Virus record (IMG/VR): IMGVR_UViG_3300033545_000001
Coordinates: 55,393-119,392 of that record
Length of the DNA stretch: 64,000 nt
Direction: 5' to 3' (one strand)
From: a virus
Below are positions 5,316 through 64,000 of this stretch, piece after piece (position 1 is the stretch's first letter; each line of letters begins with the position of its first letter). The translations under genes were made by a program, and so were the position numbers. A model generated the notes under the pieces. That model had not been told where the DNA came from. It was given only the letters and a program-made list of their open reading frames with translations, and did not search any database.

Positions 5316-6420
5316 AATTCATGTACCTAAGCAAGTGCTAAAGTCTATTGTAGAAAGAGTTTCTGGGGCAGTTGCTACTTCAGGTGGAAATGTGGCTCTT
5401 CAGTGTTTTCATTTCAATGTGACTCCCCAGGCTATTACTGTCACAGCGTCAGATCAATCTAATACTCTGATGGTGACAGAGCCTGGGGGGTTCGACTCCT
5501 CATTCGAATTCATGGCTTTGGCATCTAAATTCAAGCCAATTGTCAGACAGGCAGCAGACGGGCTCATACAGCTTGGAGTGTCTAACAATACTTTGACAGT
5601 AGTAGCTGGAAATACAGCCTGGGATATTAGGATGCCCGCAGTTACATATCCTAAGATATCCAAGTCTTCTGAAGTAGGATGTGAAATTTCCGTACCAGTA
5701 CTTCGTGAAGCTATAAAGGCTACACGCAAGTCTATAGCAGAAGATCCCCTAAGGCCATCATTAAGAATGCTGTCTATTAGAAAAGGTTATATGACAGCTT
5801 GTGACGGTTCTAGATTATCTCAGATATCTTTGGGAGAAGACTTTCCGAAGGATTTCACTACTTCAGTGCCGTTAAATTCTGTAGCTCTGTTGGCAGAGTT
5901 GGTTAAGGATAATGAATTTGATGTTGTGAAGATGTCTACTATAGACAGTCACAACATATTTGAAGTTGGCAATATAAAGCTATTTGCAAAGAAGTTAACT
6001 AACGATTTCCCCAATGTAGAGCAGTTAATGCTTCGTCCAGCTCTTGAGAATAAGCAAGAGCTGCTAGTAGATAGATTAGAGCTTATCAAGGCTATTGACA
6101 GAGTTCGTATCAATGCAGATATAGAGACTGACGCCATGGGACTTTCTCTATCTGCGAAGAGTATTGCTGTGGCTTCTAGAGATAAAGATGGAAACAGTAG
6201 CACTGAGATTATTCCTTCTAGTTGGATGGGCAAGGATAGAGTTTTAGTAGTTAATCATAAGTATTTGACAGCTTTAGTACGAGGAATATCTTCAGACGAG
6301 TGTCACTTCATGCTGGGGGAAGATACTAAGTCTAGAAAATCAGTACTTCTACTTAAAGATGAAGAGAGAGGCTTCAATGGGGTCATTCCACAGTTCTCAG
6401 GAACTGTCAAGATATTTTGA
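5308..6420 (+). CDS. dnaN: DNA polymerase III beta clamp-like protein
   Basis: 370 aa, 'TASD', 'RPSL', 'ACDGSRL', 'FPNV', 'NHKYL' match DnaN layout. Confidence 0.8.
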   Translation: MPEIHVPKQVLKSIVERVSGAVATSGGNVALQCFHFNVTPQAITVTASDQSNTLMVTEPGGFDSSFEFMALASKFKPIVRQAADGLIQLGVSNNTLTVVAGNTAWDIRMPAVTYPKISKSSEVGCEISVPVLREAIKATRKSIAEDPLRPSLRMLSIRKGYMTACDGSRLSQISLGEDFPKDFTTSVPLNSVALLAELVKDNEFDVVKMSTIDSHNIFEVGNIKLFAKKLTNDFPNVEQLMLRPALENKQELLVDRLELIKAIDRVRINADIETDAMGLSLSAKSIAVASRDKDGNSSTEIIPSSWMGKDRVLVVNHKYLTALVRGISSDECHFMLGEDTKSRKSVLLLKDEERGFNGVIPQFSGTVKIF

Positions 6421-56093: not shown

Positions 56094-56486
56094 ATGTCCC
56101 GACATGAGAGGTACCTTAGCCGTGCTCATCAAGAAGCTGAAGCTTCTGAACACCCGCGATGGTATCTAGGGGCTGTCCTTGTACGAGGTGGTTCCATAGT
56201 CGCTACGGCTCACAATGTGAGACGTAATTCCCCTTATGTGACTCAGGGTGCTCCAGGTACATCTTTGCATGCGGAACAGGCTGTTATTCGTAAAGTGTTC
56301 TATCAGGCAGATAGAGCTGAAGGTACTACTCTGTATGTTGTACGAGTCAATAATCTTGGACAACGTCGCCTTGCTCGTCCTTGTCATAGATGCTACAAGG
56401 CAATTGTAGCATCAGGCATAAAGACAGTAGTGTACTCTGTTGACGATGCTGCGTTTGGTATGGAAAGAGTTTACTCGAACACTTGA
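56094..56486 (+). CDS. zinc-dependent CMP/dCMP-type deaminase
   Basis: HAE and PCxxC motifs. Confidence 0.85.
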   Translation: MSRHERYLSRAHQEAEASEHPRWYLGAVLVRGGSIVATAHNVRRNSPYVTQGAPGTSLHAEQAVIRKVFYQADRAEGTTLYVVRVNNLGQRRLARPCHRCYKAIVASGIKTVVYSVDDAAFGMERVYSNT

Positions 56487-60209: not shown

Positions 60210-60353
60210 ATGGCTAAGATTCCTGATAAGCCACCAGCAAATCGCTCGGAAAGAGCTGCTGAAGAGGCTATTGCTCAAGGTGGAGGTCCTGCTCAAGGTG
60301 GCGCTCCTGCTGGAAAGCCTCAACCAGTTCCTCCGCCTCGTCCACATCCTTAA
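60210..60353 (+). CDS. Pro/Gly-rich small peptide
   Basis: ATG downstream of AAGGA. Confidence 0.45.
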   Translation: MAKIPDKPPANRSERAAEEAIAQGGGPAQGGAPAGKPQPVPPPRPHP

Positions 60354-60372
60354 TTAAAGATAAGGGGCAAAC

Positions 60373-60723
60373 ATGAAGGATTTTATTTCAGACCACATAG
60401 GCGGTCTTCTGCTGACAGGAGCTGCTACAGTACTTGTGCTGGCAACTGGCGGCTATGATGTTGTACTGCATTCTACTCAGCGTACAGTGACTGCAACTGT
60501 TACTAAGACATGGATTCAGTATTCTGATAATCGTACTATCAATCTCATTGGCACTAACGAAGGTGTTTTTGAGGATGCAGACAGTCCATTCTATGATAAG
60601 TTTAATTCGTCTGACTACTTCAATGAACTTACTGTAGGTAAGACTTACACGTTCGATGTGACTGGTTGGCGCATTCCGATTCTTTCAGCTTGGCCTAACA
60701 TCGTATCCTGTCAAGACTGCTAG
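60373..60723 (+). CDS. membrane-anchored/secreted protein
   Basis: N-terminal hydrophobic helix; 'GKTY...GWRIP...PNI'. Confidence 0.7.
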   Translation: MKDFISDHIGGLLLTGAATVLVLATGGYDVVLHSTQRTVTATVTKTWIQYSDNRTINLIGTNEGVFEDADSPFYDKFNSSDYFNELTVGKTYTFDVTGWRIPILSAWPNIVSCQDC

Positions 60724-60726
60724 AAC

Positions 60727-60821
60727 TTGACAAGTGGAGGAAGACATGGTAGACTTGGGAAATCCAAGGCAAGATGGTCCTCAACTAAGGACTTGACAGC
60801 ATCCGATAGTTCTGCTAGAAT
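60727..60821 (+). promoter_or_regulatory. tandem sigma70-type promoters for the tRNA array
   Basis: TTGACA-N17-TAGACT (60727) and TTGACA-N17-TAGAAT (60793); the second has CCGAT in its spacer. Confidence 0.7.
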
Positions 60822-60934
60822 AGTCTTACAGGCGAGAACCTCTGGTTCTTAACCTGGCTGGGACCGGCAGGAAGCTGGACCTAGAGACTTGGTACTAGTA
60901 TTCTTTTGGTTACGCTAGTACGTGAAGTCAGGCA

Positions 60935-61007
60935 TGCGGGGTACGCTAACGGTACGCGGGAAGGCTCATAACCTTCTGTACGTGGGTTCGAATCCCATCC
61001 CCCGCTA
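60935..61007 (+). tRNA. tRNA-Met(CAT), initiator-like
   Basis: Loop CTCATAA, 1:72 mismatch. Confidence 0.8.
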
Positions 61008-61023
61008 CGTAATAATTTAATAA

Positions 61024-61095
61024 CTGGGTGTGGTGTAAAGGTAAGCATGGCTGCTTTGGATGCAGGCGGATGGGGTTCGAGTCCCCGCTCCCGGA
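61024..61095 (+). tRNA. tRNA-Pro(TGG)
   Basis: Cloverleaf, loop TTTGGAT. Confidence 0.85.
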
Positions 61096-61127
61096 CGTAA
61101 CAGTTTCTATGATTTTAATATTATAAT

Positions 61128-61198
61128 CTGGGTATCGTATAGTGGTAAGACGTCTGTTTTGGGAACAGATGACGGAAGTTCGATTCTTCCTACCCGGA
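61128..61198 (+). tRNA. tRNA-Pro(TGG)
   Basis: Cloverleaf, loop TTTGGGA. Confidence 0.85.
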
Positions 61199-61210
61199 CG
61201 TAGTAACTAT

Positions 61211-61282
61211 GGCCTATTCGTATAGTGGCAAGTACCCCAGACTTCCAATCTGGCGACACCGGTTCGAATCCGGTATAGGTCT
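61211..61282 (+). tRNA. tRNA-Gly(TCC)
   Basis: Cloverleaf, loop CTTCCAA, U73. Confidence 0.9.
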
Positions 61283-61371
61283 CTATGAGAAAGATACCAG
61301 CGATAAAAAAGTGTTCTCATTGTGAAGAAGAGTTTAGTACTCTCAATTTAATCCAAAGTCTAACTAAATAT

Positions 61372-61442
61372 GTCTTAGTGGTGTAGCGGTAACATACTAG
61401 CTTGCCAAGCTGGTGTCACGGGTTCGAATCCCGTATAAGACT
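61372..61442 (+). tRNA. tRNA-Gly(GCC)
   Basis: Cloverleaf, loop TTGCCAA, U73. Confidence 0.9.
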
Positions 61443-61490
61443 CGCAGTATCAAGGAAGTTAAGTAGTGCCAAGAGGCGAAAGCCTCGAAT

Positions 61491-61563
61491 GTATCCAAAG
61501 CTGACTCGGATCAAGCGCTTGGTTGAAGCCCAGGAGAACTCAGTTCGACTCTGAGTGGATGCA
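61491..61563 (+). tRNA. tRNA-Phe(GAA)
   Basis: Cloverleaf, loop TTGAAGC. Confidence 0.8.
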
Positions 61564-61576
61564 CGCAGTAACTGAT

Positions 61577-61651
61577 GGTGGCTATAGCTTAGACGGATAA
61601 AGCGTCTGACTGTGACTCAGAAGACCGAGGGTTCGAGCCCCTCTAGTCACC
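61577..61651 (+). tRNA. tRNA-His(GTG)
   Basis: Loop CTGTGAC, G-1:C73. Confidence 0.9.
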
Positions 61652-61667
61652 CTTATAAACTTCATAT

Positions 61668-61742
61668 GCCTCTGTAGCTCAGCGGATAGAGCACCCGGCT
61701 ACGAACCGGGGTTTTGCGGGAGTTCGATTCTCTCCAGGGGCA
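61668..61742 (+). tRNA. tRNA-Arg(ACG)
   Basis: Cloverleaf, loop CTACGAA. Confidence 0.9.
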
Positions 61743-61773
61743 CTCCTCTTGCCAGGGACTCACAATTAAATAT

Positions 61774-61844
61774 GCCGGATTCGTCTAATGGTAGGGCCTT
61801 TGTTTTACACACAAATGGCGGGGGTTCGATTCCCTCATCCGGTA
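61774..61844 (+). tRNA. tRNA-Val(TAC)
   Basis: Cloverleaf, loop TTTACAC. Confidence 0.88.
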
Positions 61845-61845
61845 C

Positions 61846-61939
61846 GCAAGGGTATAGTGTAACAGCACGCCAGTCATCGGGACTGGTAGAGCCAGTCATC
61901 GGGACTGGTAGAGCCAGTAAAGTCTGGCTGCCCGTGCCA
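61846..61939 (+). ncRNA. tRNA-like RNA copy 1 with duplicated anticodon-type arm
   Basis: Acceptor AAGGGTA/TGCCCGT-G-CCA; 22-nt tandem repeat GCCAGTCATCGGGACTGGTAGA. Confidence 0.65.
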
Positions 61940-61941
61940 AT

Positions 61942-62015
61942 CTCTAGGTAGCTTAGTAGGTTAAAGCCTCCGTCTGATAAGCGGAAGACCGGTGGTTCGA
62001 GTCCACCTCTAGAGA
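61942..62015 (+). tRNA. tRNA-Ile(GAT)
   Basis: Cloverleaf, loop CTGATAA. Confidence 0.9.
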
Positions 62016-62144
62016 CGCTGCCCTAGCCTGAGGCGTATTAATAGCACATCAGGGAGACCAGTAATGCTGGTGAGCCTGTTGGATAGCATTAAAAGAGTAG
62101 TTATTTCTACTCAAGGTTAGCTGAGAGTAAAATCTCAGCGTCAT

Positions 62145-62217
62145 GCCAGCGTAGCCCAACGGTAGAGGCCTCTGACTTAGAATCAGATTGTTGTAGGTTC
62201 GAATCCTATCGCTGGTA
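62145..62217 (+). tRNA. tRNA-Leu(TAG), short variable loop
   Basis: Cloverleaf, loop CTTAGAA. Confidence 0.88.
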
Positions 62218-62218
62218 C

Positions 62219-62247
62219 TTGACAGTCTAGAAGATAGATGCTAGACT
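62219..62247 (+). promoter_or_regulatory. sigma70-type promoter, leaderless geometry
   Basis: TTGACA-N17-TAGACT, 6 nt before ATG 62254. Confidence 0.7.
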
Positions 62248-62253
62248 TCATGT

Positions 62254-62721
62254 ATGACAAGGAGAAAGTACACCAAAGAAGTTTTGCAAGAAGCTGCAAA
62301 TAGTTCTACAAGCTATGCAGGAATTCTAAGAGTTTTAGGAATCAAGCAGGCAGGTGGATCGCAGTCAAATATAATTAAAGCATGTAGCGTCTTAGGTGTA
62401 GATGTCAGTCATTTTACAGGTCAAAGTTGGTCCAAAGATAGAACCTTTAAGAAAAGGGCTGTGGAAGAAATTCTTGTAGTCCTCCCTGAAGGATCACATA
62501 GACCAAAAACAAAGACTTTATTAAACTGCATAAAGGCAAAAGAAGTACCTTATAGTTGCAGCGAATGTGGCTTGGGGAATATATGGAATGGCAAGTCTCT
62601 TACACTAGAGATAGATCATATTAGCGGAGACTGGCTGGATAATAGACTAGAAAATTTAAGATTTCTATGTCCTAACTGTCATAGCCAGCAAGAAACTAAT
62701 AAGCCATACAAAAATAGGTAA
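62254..62721 (+). CDS. HNH homing endonuclease
   Basis: 'LEIDHISG...DNRLENLRFLCPNCH'; paralog of ORF 56979. Confidence 0.88.
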   Translation: MTRRKYTKEVLQEAANSSTSYAGILRVLGIKQAGGSQSNIIKACSVLGVDVSHFTGQSWSKDRTFKKRAVEEILVVLPEGSHRPKTKTLLNCIKAKEVPYSCSECGLGNIWNGKSLTLEIDHISGDWLDNRLENLRFLCPNCHSQQETNKPYKNR

Positions 62722-62722
62722 T

Positions 62723-62795
62723 GGTCCGTTGGAGCAGCGGTTAACTCGTCTCCCTCTCAAGGAGAAGATCAGGGGTTCAAATCCCCTACGGACTA
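62723..62795 (+). tRNA. tRNA-Glu(CTC)
   Basis: Cloverleaf, loop CTCTCAA. Confidence 0.9.
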
Positions 62796-62796
62796 C

Positions 62797-63222
62797 GTGA
62801 AACAATGTATAAAGTGCGGCATAGAGAAAGATGACTCTAGTTTCTTTAAAAGAACTCTTAAGTCAGGCGCAGTAGGTTTACAGTCTTGGTGCAAAGACTG
62901 TAATAAAGAACATAAAGGCACTTGGATAAAAGACAATAGGGATAAAGTAAGATGGAATACTTTGTGGTCAAAGTACAGACTTCGTGAAGAGGACTGGAAC
63001 CGCATGGTACTTCAGCAAGAAAATCTTTGCGCTGTGTGTAGATTTGAAGTTCCTACAATAGTAGATCATGACCACGATTGCTGTCCTACAGTTCCTTGTT
63101 GCGGTAAATGTGTCAGAGGTTTAGTATGTAATAGATGTAACGTGTTTATTGGATATTTAGAAATGAATCCTAATCTTCACGAAAGTGCAGTAGCCTATTT
63201 GGCCCGTTGGTCTAGTGGTTAG
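62797..63222 (+). CDS. endonuclease VII-family homing endonuclease
   Basis: 'VDHDHDCC...CGKCVRGLVCNRCN'; stop lies inside the next tRNA. Confidence 0.85.
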   Translation: MKQCIKCGIEKDDSSFFKRTLKSGAVGLQSWCKDCNKEHKGTWIKDNRDKVRWNTLWSKYRLREEDWNRMVLQQENLCAVCRFEVPTIVDHDHDCCPTVPCCGKCVRGLVCNRCNVFIGYLEMNPNLHESAVAYLARWSSG

Positions 63223-63273
63223 GACGCCTGACTTTCAATCAGGAAAAGACGAGTTCGATCCTCGTACGGGCTA
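63201..63273 (+). tRNA. tRNA-Glu(TTC)
   Basis: Cloverleaf, loop CTTTCAA. Confidence 0.9.
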
Positions 63274-63335
63274 CGTCGGTTCCCCTGTACGCTGGGGATT
63301 AAAGAGGTCGTTCAAGTAAGGCCGCGCCGCCCAAT

Positions 63336-63408
63336 GGTTTGTTAGCTCAGGGGTTAGAGCACCTCCCTGTCAAGGAGGGGGCCACGGGTTCGACTCCCTC
63401 ACGGGCTA
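63336..63408 (+). tRNA. tRNA-Asp(GTC), chimeric or degenerate
   Basis: Loop CTGTCAA; T stem has 2 mismatches; acceptor has 4 G-U pairs. Confidence 0.65.
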
Positions 63409-63518
63409 CGCTGGGTAGGTTTCCCTTGAGGAATTAAATGATACCAAGCCTTCCGTAAGGTTACCTCTAGCCCCTGGGGTATTAAATCTGGCTTTGGAAG
63501 CTAGAGCCTTTAAACTCT

Positions 63519-63591
63519 GGTTCGTTAGCTCAATGGTCAGAGCACCTGCTTGTCACGCAGGAGGTTGCGGGTTCGAATCCCGTACGAATCG
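63519..63591 (+). tRNA. tRNA-Asp(GTC)
   Basis: Cloverleaf, loop TTGTCAC, G73. Confidence 0.9.
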
Positions 63592-63592
63592 C

Positions 63593-63663
63593 GCAGAGGA
63601 TAGTGTAAAGCGCACTCCAGTCATCGGGACTGGCAGCTCCGGGGTAGCGTCCGGTCCTCAGCA
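63593..63663 (+). ncRNA. tRNA-like RNA copy 2
   Basis: GCAGAGGA/TCCTCAGC acceptor, GTGT/GCAC D stem, CCAGTCATCGGGACTGG arm, CCGGG-GTAGCG-TCCGG T arm. Confidence 0.65.
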
Positions 63664-63667
63664 TAAT

Positions 63668-63739
63668 ATGGGTGTAGTTCAATGGCGAGAGCAGCAGTCT
63701 CCAAAACTGCAAATGGGGGTTCGAATCCCTCCACCCATG
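63668..63739 (+). tRNA. tRNA-Trp(CCA)
   Basis: Cloverleaf, loop CTCCAAA, G73. Confidence 0.9.
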
Positions 63740-63810
63740 CGTAGTATGTTTGAGTAGTCTAGCCAGATCGCTTCAGGAGACACGGCTGCCCCTGACAAGC
63801 ATATTATAAT

Positions 63811-63881
63811 TGGAGAATGGTGTAATGGCAGCACTAATGACTTTGAATCATTCAGTGAAAGTTCGAGTCTTTCTTCTCCAG
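63811..63881 (+). tRNA. tRNA-Gln(TTG)
   Basis: Cloverleaf, loop CTTTGAA, U1-A72. Confidence 0.9.
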
Positions 63882-63893
63882 CGTAACAGCAGT

Positions 63894-63966
63894 GCCCCAT
63901 TAGCTCAATGGCTAAGAGCCACGCTCTTGTAAAGCGAAGATGAGAGTTCGATTCTTTCATGGGGCT
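63894..63966 (+). tRNA. tRNA-Thr(TGT)
   Basis: Cloverleaf, loop CTTGTAA. Confidence 0.88.
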
Positions 63967-63980
63967 CGTAATAATTTAAT

Positions 63981-64000
63981 GCCTCTAAAGCATTAAGGTG
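63981..64000 (+). tRNA. probable 5' end of a further tRNA (truncated by window)
   Basis: GCCTCTA-AA-GCAT-TAAGGTG after AT-rich spacer. Confidence 0.45.

Follow-up and report, generated by a model that had tools for sequence, protein, structure and literature searches.

Two tRNA-shaped elements in a phage tRNA array

The stretch of DNA analysed here (the window, 64,000 nt) forms the final 64 kb of IMGVR_UViG_3300033545_000001, a linear virus record of IMG/VR that measures 119,392 bp and is estimated to be 89% complete. It ends in the tRNA cluster of a soil phage, which hosts two tRNA-shaped elements, E1 and E2, lineage-specific, core-reduced look-alikes of tRNA that probably do not decode. An ortholog of E2 is present in L046, a metagenome contig of 6,204 bp that is identical to positions 63420-64000 of the window at 578 of 582 positions. 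The elements and their parts are as follows.

61846-61939, plus strand: E1, tRNA-shaped, 94 nt, a 72-nt cloverleaf with a 22-nt internal tandem duplication (sequence, fold, ARAGORN -ps80)
61869-61912, plus strand: the 22-nt unit GCCAGTCATCGGGACTGGTAGA twice in perfect tandem (TRF)
61870-61886, plus strand: 17-mer arm, copy 1, at the anticodon-arm position of E1
61892-61908, plus strand: 17-mer arm, copy 2 of E1, the duplicated copy
63593-63663, plus strand: E2, tRNA-shaped, 71 nt, the copy conserved in L046 (sequence, fold, ARAGORN -mt)
63617-63633, plus strand: 17-mer arm of E2

Both elements fit closely between canonical tRNA genes. E1 fills the gap between tRNA-Val (61774-61845), which ends 1 nt before it starts, and tRNA-Ile, which begins 2 nt after it at 61942; E2 directly follows tRNA-Asp (63519-63592) and ends 4 nt before tRNA-Trp (63668). 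The first-pass annotation of this DNA had described both as cloverleaves, and the minimum-energy folds, the ARAGORN drawings and a table of base pairs all show the four helices. The minimum-energy fold of E1 is a four-arm cloverleaf of -47.4 kcal/mol (z -5.98; 0 of 200 shuffles as good) and that of E2 a four-arm cloverleaf of -27.5 kcal/mol (z -2.02; 8 of 200 shuffles as good); for the 72-nt form of E1, z is -3.85 and 1 of 300 shuffles folds as well.

The pair table likewise bears out the D arm described earlier, with the stem GUGU/GCAC common to E1 and E2 and loops of 4-5 nt (AACA and AAAGC, respectively) that contain no GG. The T stems have 5 bp in both elements and carry 6-nt loops, UAAAGU and GUAGCG, that lack TTC, again as first reported. 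The anticodon position is taken by an identical 17-mer, CCAGTCATCGGGACTGG, which occurs three times in the window, always on the plus strand, as compared with no occurrence in 100 dinucleotide shuffles. Its loop reads CAUCGGG in both elements, with A33 where U33 would be expected; if C32 pairs with G38, the stem has the 6 bp and the loop the sequence AUCGG that had been noted from the letters.

One structural claim stands in part. A mismatch of A with a purine is indeed present in both acceptor stems, at pair 4 of E1 (A.G) and pair 3 of E2 (A.A), numbered from the 5' end, but for the two to be homologous a 1-bp indel has to be assumed, E1 having an extra pair A3-U68. The acceptor and T stems together make 13 layers in E2 (8/5) and 14 in E1 (9/5 or 8/6), the canonical number being 12, and the variable loops of E2 and of the 72-nt form of E1 measure 4-5 nt (5 nt in E2).

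Recognition by tRNA and RNA search programs

Rfam searches of 61830-61955 and 63580-63680 returned no member of the tRNA clan (CL00001) and no convincing family, even at E<=10, and default ARAGORN called neither element, in agreement with the earlier view that these are not standard tRNAs. Measured against RF00005, for which the gathering threshold is 29 bits, neither element attains the score; the cloverleaf is there, and G18G19, the T54-Psi55-C56 seven-nucleotide T loop and U33 are all absent. With its thresholds set at 80% (-ps80), ARAGORN reads E1 as tRNA-Arg(tcg) at 61848-61939, and in its metazoan-mitochondrial mode (-mt) it reads E2 as mtRNA-Arg(tcg) at 63593-63663, the 72-nt form of E1 being called in both modes. 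Between 60900 and 64000, E1 is the sole extra plus-strand -ps80 call that overlaps no tRNA, and E2 is the sole extra -mt call. Independence from tRNA is not upheld by these readings.

Over the collected loci, the mitochondrial mode produced 146 extra non-redundant calls that the default mode had missed, of which 16 lie within 10 nt of a canonical tRNA on the same strand, as against 3 in an opposite-strand control. Extra elements of this kind, with deviant D or T loops, were found at L012 5514-5585, L013 6984-7055, L015 10187-10258, L027 5360-5430, L031 4816-4884, L033 3330-3400 and L048 1416-1490 (OR553905.1 69615-69689). The L015 element has D and T arms like those of E1 and E2, at 67-68% identity. 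One of the 16, of the His(gtg) type, belongs to Microbacterium phage Magritte, the nearest isolate by terminase (45.8% amino-acid identity); it is unannotated in GenBank and has no RF00005 match. Even when read in the plainest way, the case shows that genes derived from tRNA in phage arrays escape standard detectors (Rfam, default ARAGORN).

Descent from a tRNA

ARAGORN and Rfam identify the same 19 tRNAs in the whole window (42-72 bits in Rfam). Global identity of E1 or E2 to these is 0.53-0.65, and the tRNAs have a mean of 0.63 among themselves; E1 and E2 are 0.76 identical to each other, which makes them paralogs. That they are tRNA-derived paralogs we regard as very likely. The phage tRNA-Gln(ttg) has a D stem identical to theirs but a D loop of 7 nt with GG, suggesting that the short D loops of E1 and E2 arose by deletion. 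Their anticodon loop (CATCGGG in DNA letters) agrees at five of seven positions with the canonical Arg(tcg) loop CTTCGGA found in L039 and differs from it at 33 and 38 only.

The window and L046 together contain tRNAs for all 20 amino acids, including U34 tRNAs for Leu (tag), Val (tac), Ser (tga), Pro (tgg), Thr (tgt), Ala (tgc) and Gly (tcc). Arg CGN, served by acg only, is the sole four-codon box in this set that has no U34 tRNA. Given the Arg(tcg)-like loop and this unfilled U34 slot, descent from tRNA-Arg(UCG) is the simplest origin; the parent would have been a phage tRNA, most likely a tRNA-Arg(UCG).

Selection, duplication and loss

For a comparison of the two elements, the 72-nt form of E1 was used. 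Twelve acceptor and T pairs are common to both; six of these differ, five of them on both sides, and all six still pair, including two in the acceptor stem, the strands of which are about 55 nt apart. The earlier observation that these stems differ in sequence yet keep pairing is therefore correct. The D stem is identical in 4 of 4 pairs and the arm in 17 of 17 nt; differences do occur in the loops of the D and T arms, in the variable loop and at nt 24. Identical stems and arm around a differing D loop and nt 24 fit selection better than a single conversion tract. The two pairs of array tRNAs with the same anticodon, which have diverged to a comparable extent, have non-identical anticodon arms (Pro1/Pro2, identical in 48 of 73 columns; Asp1/Asp2, in 54 of 74). 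Selection on the RNA fold is, in our estimate, likely; the acceptor-T helix appears to be constrained in shape only, whereas in the D stem and throughout the anticodon arm the constraint appears to be on sequence.

The history of the two copies within the lineage has been uneven. TRF reports a repeat at 61869-61918 with a period of 22, 2.3 copies and 100% match, a duplication that the first-pass annotation does not mention and that alone brings E1 to 94 nt. Each unit comprises the arm and 5 further nt. Its first 6 nt recur at 61913-61918 (GCCAGT), where the T arm begins, and the duplication in E1 would fit replication slippage, for which a unit bounded by a direct repeat is the classic setting. 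A contig from run X4 shows the 72-nt form, an E1 from which precisely the 22 nt at 61869 are missing. In a contig from run X2 E1 is absent, 61845 (tRNA-Val) being joined to 61959 (the next tRNA), and another X2 contig of equal depth holds E2 in its L046 form. The L046 ortholog (5961-6031, minus strand) differs from E2 at 2 of 71 positions, one in the variable loop and the other a C to T change at 63639 by which a C-G pair of the T stem becomes U.G and still pairs. All four differences between L046 and the window are confined to 63637-63665, two in E2 and two just 3' of it, with none in the other 500-odd nt. Within the lineage, then, E2 is kept and E1 is gained or lost. The idea that both copies are indispensable is not supported by these comparisons, as E1 is absent from one relative and internally duplicated here; turnover is visible among near-identical strains, with one copy gained or lost and one carrying a slippage duplication.

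This turnover would also be expected of decaying pseudo-tRNAs, that is, of an inactivated tRNA-Arg copy that was duplicated and of which both copies are drifting and being lost, the arm being shared by gene conversion. Such decay would be in keeping with the disappearance of every tRNA hallmark and of any Rfam tRNA-clan match at E<=10, with the presence or absence of E1 and its 22-nt slippage duplication, with the clustering of all four L046 differences in or beside E2, with the failure to find homologs outside the lineage in the collections searched (see below), and with the absence of an RNA contig over the elements. The four helices are nevertheless intact in E1, E2 and the L046 copy, and the changed stem pairs pair in six cases out of six, two of them in the far-apart acceptor strands. 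About 11 of some 25 nt differ in the acceptor and T stems and 0 of 25 in the D stem and arm, which is incompatible with uniform drift, and the differences in the D loop and nt 24, lying between identical stems, misfit a single conversion tract. Overall, decay seems to us an unlikely explanation of the pair.

Coding potential of the anticodon loop

U33 makes the U-turn of the anticodon loop. Among 363 non-redundant phage tRNAs called by default ARAGORN, position 33 is T in 356, C in six, G in one and A in none, a count that may be biased by a preference of the program for T33; the pair C32:G38 occurs in one of the 363. Both coincide in E1 and in E2. With A33 and a pairable C32:G38, the loop would seal into a 6-bp stem with five unpaired bases, which argues against an ordinary decoder, and these counts give weight to the original proposal that the elements are not standard decoders.

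A deviant but working tRNA-Arg(UCG) with a reduced core, resembling tRNAPyl or type II mitochondrial tRNAs, has to be weighed against this. Charged by the host arginyl-tRNA synthetase (ArgRS) through C35 and G36, it would read CGG and CGA, its odd loops perhaps evading host enzymes that attack tRNA. ArgRS recognizes its tRNAs by A20 together with C35 and with G36 (or U36) of a 7-nt loop, and G36-G37 is the TrmD motif. U34-C35-G36-G37 is present in the elements if the stem is read as 5 bp, and position 20 is unassignable in a D loop of 4-5 nt, A residues of which, we assume, could replace A20. The loop also retains C32, U34, C35, G36 and G37 of canonical Arg(tcg) and Arg(ccg) loops. Under standard wobble rules, a UCG tRNA would be the only reader of CGG in the phage set. 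Magritte carries a canonical Arg(ccg) beside Arg(acg), and tRNAPyl, with its 5-nt D loop without GG and its T loop without TPsiC, works in bacteria, according to the part of PMC7609411 that is available. Set against this possibility are the rarity of A33 and C32:G38 among phage tRNAs, an acceptor-plus-T branch of 13-14 layers that is unequal in E1 and E2 and exceeds the canonical 12, and the retention of the A.purine acceptor mismatch in both copies. Demand for such a tRNA would be small, since of all Arg codons CGG (64) and CGA (137) occur least often in the 33,302 codons of 155 crudely called open reading frames; UUA, too, lacks a phage tRNA, so the set is incomplete in any case, and E1 is dispensable. 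We find a working decoder doubtful.

Comparison with known RNAs and search for relatives

Canonical tRNA-Arg(UCG/CCG), covered by RF00005, resembles E1 and E2 in its four-helix cloverleaf, its flush placement in a tRNA operon, its loop positions 32 and 34-37 and the absence of an encoded CCA. The two elements differ from it in having no G18G19 or T54-Psi55-C56, a 6-nt T loop, a D loop of 4-5 nt, A33, a G38 that could pair with C32, and an acceptor of 8-9 pairs with an A.purine mismatch, and in the lack of an RF00005 match at E<=10. In tRNASec a 13-bp acceptor-plus-T branch is combined with a long variable arm and a UCA anticodon. Membership in this family (RF01852) was rejected: E2 has 13 layers as 8/5, but its variable loop is 5 nt, its triplet is UCG and no RF01852 match was obtained at E<=10.

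The closest architecture, as far as the accessible part of the source goes, is that of tRNAPyl and the reduced mitochondrial tRNAs (PMC7609411). In the description given there, tRNAPyl and mammalian mitochondrial tRNAs of types I and II share with E1 and E2 a 4-5-nt D loop without GG, a T loop without TPsiC, a short linker between acceptor and D stem and an anticodon stem that may reach 6 bp. The 6-bp stem of tRNAPyl still carries a 7-nt loop with U33 and CUA, and tRNAPyl needs PylRS (PMC7609411); in E1 and E2, by contrast, the sixth pair consumes positions 32 and 38, position 33 is A and the triplet is UCG. These features, together with the absence of a TIGR02367 (PylRS) match in the 119-kb record, exclude the elements from tRNAPyl. 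The allo-tRNAs and other 8/4 and 9/3 tRNAs (Mukai et al.), some of which lie in phage tRNA clusters, are likewise non-canonical cloverleaves with a lengthened acceptor stem, their 12-bp acceptor-plus-T branch being arranged as 8/4 or 9/3 in the accessible part of PMC5389517. Assignment to that class was rejected as well, E2 being 8/5, E1 9/5 (or 8/6) and both T stems 5 bp long.

Two small non-tRNA RNAs of unknown role, RNAC and RNAD, occur in the tRNA region of phage T4, according to the available excerpts of PMC3014915 and PMC9697503. E1 and E2, which are cloverleaf derivatives of tRNA, share with them the location in a phage tRNA cluster, a likeness drawn from description only. Phage tRNAs with anti-defence roles offer a further parallel in their anticodon-loop changes, which have been tied to tRNA-cutting host nucleases (PMC10264068, PMC11464382, PMC11555353, each available in part). 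Those are working tRNAs that replace or resist, whereas E1 and E2 are linked to no nuclease, and the available part of PMC10264068 makes no mention of position 33, tRNA-Arg, decoys, or non-canonical or pseudo tRNAs. The literature search found no account of such an element or of phage tRNAs with A33; the supplements of PMC5389517 and PMC10690425 may list similar cases.

A covariance model built from E2 only (R1) recovered E2 (105 bits) and E1 (29.5 bits) and nothing else from 499 kb of sequence from 39 sources, mostly phage tRNA arrays; the alignment of E1 was misplaced by its duplication, and the next matches had E values of at least 6.5. Run on L046 with filters off, R1 found the E2 copy first and then ordinary tRNAs (tRNA-Gln, 21 bits); in Magritte it had no match. 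In IMG/VR, neither a pattern of the D arm plus stem nor a 22-mer of the flanking tRNA-Trp gave any match, and two exact 17-mer matches (L001 and L002) were rejected as chance because they involve no tRNA and no likeness beyond the 17-mer. Searched by blastn, E1 alone and E2 alone found nothing below E = 3 among GenBank phages. In the GTDB genomes, the D-stem-plus-arm pattern had 0 matches and the arm followed by NAG had two, of which one (L049) looks like chance. The other, L050, is a 26-nt exact identity to the E1 unit (arm and flanks) at L050 5162-5187, minus strand, from contig DASZSI010000086.1 of a Hyphomonadaceae metagenome-assembled genome; it lies about 15 nt upstream of an open reading frame resembling tryptophanyl-tRNA synthetase, in the position of a trpS leader, and is unexpectedly long for chance. 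Across 121 genomes of the family it has one exact match, in its own genome.

Copies were thus found only in near-identical relatives (L046, X2 and X4), so that E1 and E2 are confined to one phage lineage in the collections searched. The candidate new RNA family of the first-pass annotation is not supported as a broad one by the searches of IMG/VR, GenBank phages, GTDB and the 499 kb of loci, and what is new here is a deviant tRNA-derived pair, not a broad RNA family.

A predicted tRNA-Arg mimic

The reading that we favour, with a rough probability of 0.35, is that the elements are a structured, non-decoding mimic of tRNA-Arg, predicted to bait or inhibit some factor by which the anticodon arm of tRNA-Arg is recognized. 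E1 and E2 would descend from a phage tRNA, having lost the GG of the D loop, the TTC of the T loop and U33 and kept the four helices, and would belong to one transcription unit with the canonical tRNAs. From their flush fit to these tRNAs, excision by host RNase P and 3' trimming would be expected, followed by addition of CCA, since none is encoded (E1, E2 and the other array tRNAs are alike in this); the enzymes would be those of the host, since the phage encodes neither ArgRS nor a CCA-adding enzyme nor PylRS. The resulting small RNAs would measure about 71-72 nt, except that E1 of this strain would give 94 nt. Constraint on the shape alone of the acceptor-T helix fits a role in maturation and stability, and constraint on the sequence of the D stem and arm fits a specific factor that recognizes this half. 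A33 and the pairable C32:G38 should abolish the normal anticodon loop, so that the RNA would no longer be a decoder; the anticodon arm would instead be the working part, for example as a non-cleavable or non-productive ligand for a reader of the tRNA-Arg anticodon arm. E2 would be the maintained copy and E1 a dispensable paralog with a slippage duplication in this strain.

Several observations weigh against the proposed mimic. The absence of E1 from X2 and its duplication here mean that at least one copy is dispensable or damaged, and the confinement of the L046 differences to 63637-63665 suggests that E2 may evolve faster than its neighbours. The apparent co-variation draws on two paralogs and one ortholog, the T arm may have been swapped as a block, and partial gene conversion could account for the identical arm. 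The helix counts are unequal, at 14 layers in E1 and 13 in E2. The possible bias of the position-33 count has been mentioned, and a UCG tRNA would serve the sole four-codon box left without a U34 tRNA, which favours a decoder. Neither ArgRS nor a CCA-adding enzyme nor PylRS was found in the 119-kb record (89% complete). Metatranscriptome contigs from two runs of different studies (X5, 308 nt; X8, 302 nt) match 63199-63506 with 0 differences, spanning tRNA-Glu(ttc), the first tRNA-Asp and most of a 109-nt spacer and ending just before the second tRNA-Asp, and none covers E1 or E2, which, for contigs alone, is evidence neither way. These contigs may represent a stable precursor or DNA carry-over.

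The arm can also be viewed at the DNA level, as a 17-bp near-palindrome with 6-bp arms and a 5-bp spacer that would form a protein-binding or recombination site, the cloverleaf being incidental. It is an inverted repeat of operator-like size whose three copies all lie in the array, homing-type HNH and endonuclease VII genes lie there too, and the L050 match places 26 nt identical to the E1 unit in a trpS leader. We nonetheless hold this to be very improbable, as it leaves the co-varying acceptor and T stems and the flush fit between tRNAs unexplained; moreover, the X4 relative still has E1 without the HNH and endonuclease VII genes, and the L050 match is unconserved among the 121 genomes.

Phage tRNA arrays are largely read as counter-measures to host tRNA-destroying enzymes. 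If the mimic is real, a sealed arginine-type arm on a kept tRNA body would be bait or inhibitor and not a replacement tRNA, and hence a different tool. The claim is limited by the tiny size of the family, which is one phage lineage. An extended and frankly speculative form of it, to which we give little credence at present, would have E2 and E1 as a purpose-built mimic, in which the tRNA body secures host maturation and the frozen arm, sealed by A33 and C32:G38, is an uncleavable bait or an inhibitor for a host reader of tRNA-Arg such as an anticodon nuclease, a modification enzyme or ArgRS, the pair being one case of a wider, under-annotated class in phage arrays, as the 16 abutting calls against 3 in the control would suggest.

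The array and its phage

The remaining features of the array region are the following.

60793-60821, plus strand: promoter-like site TTGACA-17-TAGAAT, TG-extended, upstream of the array (consensus match only)
60935-64000, plus strand: tRNA array with E1 and E2, 18 ARAGORN tRNAs, reaching the contig end
62219-62247: second promoter-like site (consensus match only)
62254-62721: HNH gene inserted in the array
62797-63222: endonuclease VII gene inserted in the array

Consensus matching over 60300-64000 turned up no plus-strand terminator-like site. Upstream of the array lie genes for ribonucleotide reductase, a sigma factor and an SNF2 helicase. The ribonucleotide reductase genes are adjoined by a gene (56094-56486) for a 130-aa CMP/dCMP-type deaminase (PF00383, 6e-18). 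Identification of its product as TadA was rejected, as it falls under every NCBIfam cut-off, including those for TadA and the anti-phage dCTP deaminase, and from its sequence we read it as a putative nucleotide deaminase. Six relatives of the ribonucleotide reductase (L006-L011, 49-59% identity) have no array near the gene, and tRNAs occur elsewhere in two of the four whole records searched. A close DNA relative is absent among GenBank phages, where megablast and blastn of the array gave generic tRNA and HNH matches only.

In the X4 contig, which is without the two inserted genes, 62335 is followed directly by 62721, and 62798 by 63200. Proteins related to the array HNH protein were found in 31 IMG/VR loci, 30 of which contain default ARAGORN tRNAs. 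None of the other array spacers has a cloverleaf fold. The 128-nt Ile-Leu spacer (62017-62144) has a fold of -41.4 kcal/mol (z -3.4 against mononucleotide shuffles) with several hairpins, among them CCAG...CTGG, which resembles the T arm of E1; in place of this spacer the X2 relative has 30 nt and the X4 relative 113 different nt.

The array extends in L046 with 12 further tRNAs. The tRNA-Lys(ctt) that is cut by the end of the window (about 63971-64000) continues at L046 5571-5642, minus strand; it scores 44 bits in Rfam, and its T loop lacks TTC. Comparably built Lys(ctt) elements are present in the unrelated contigs L012 and L013. At L046 4722-4795, minus strand, ARAGORN calls a tRNA-Ile(aat) with G33 that does not appear among the L046 matches listed by Rfam at E<=1; it is probably a further deviant member of the array. 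Past the window end, a further oddity of tRNA-like kind in this array is an 83-nt match to tmRNA (RF00023, 61.6 bits, E 1.2e-22) at L046 1658-1740, minus strand; it spans model positions 1-374 with the middle absent and consists of the tRNA-like domain alone, overlapped by a weak mascRNA match.

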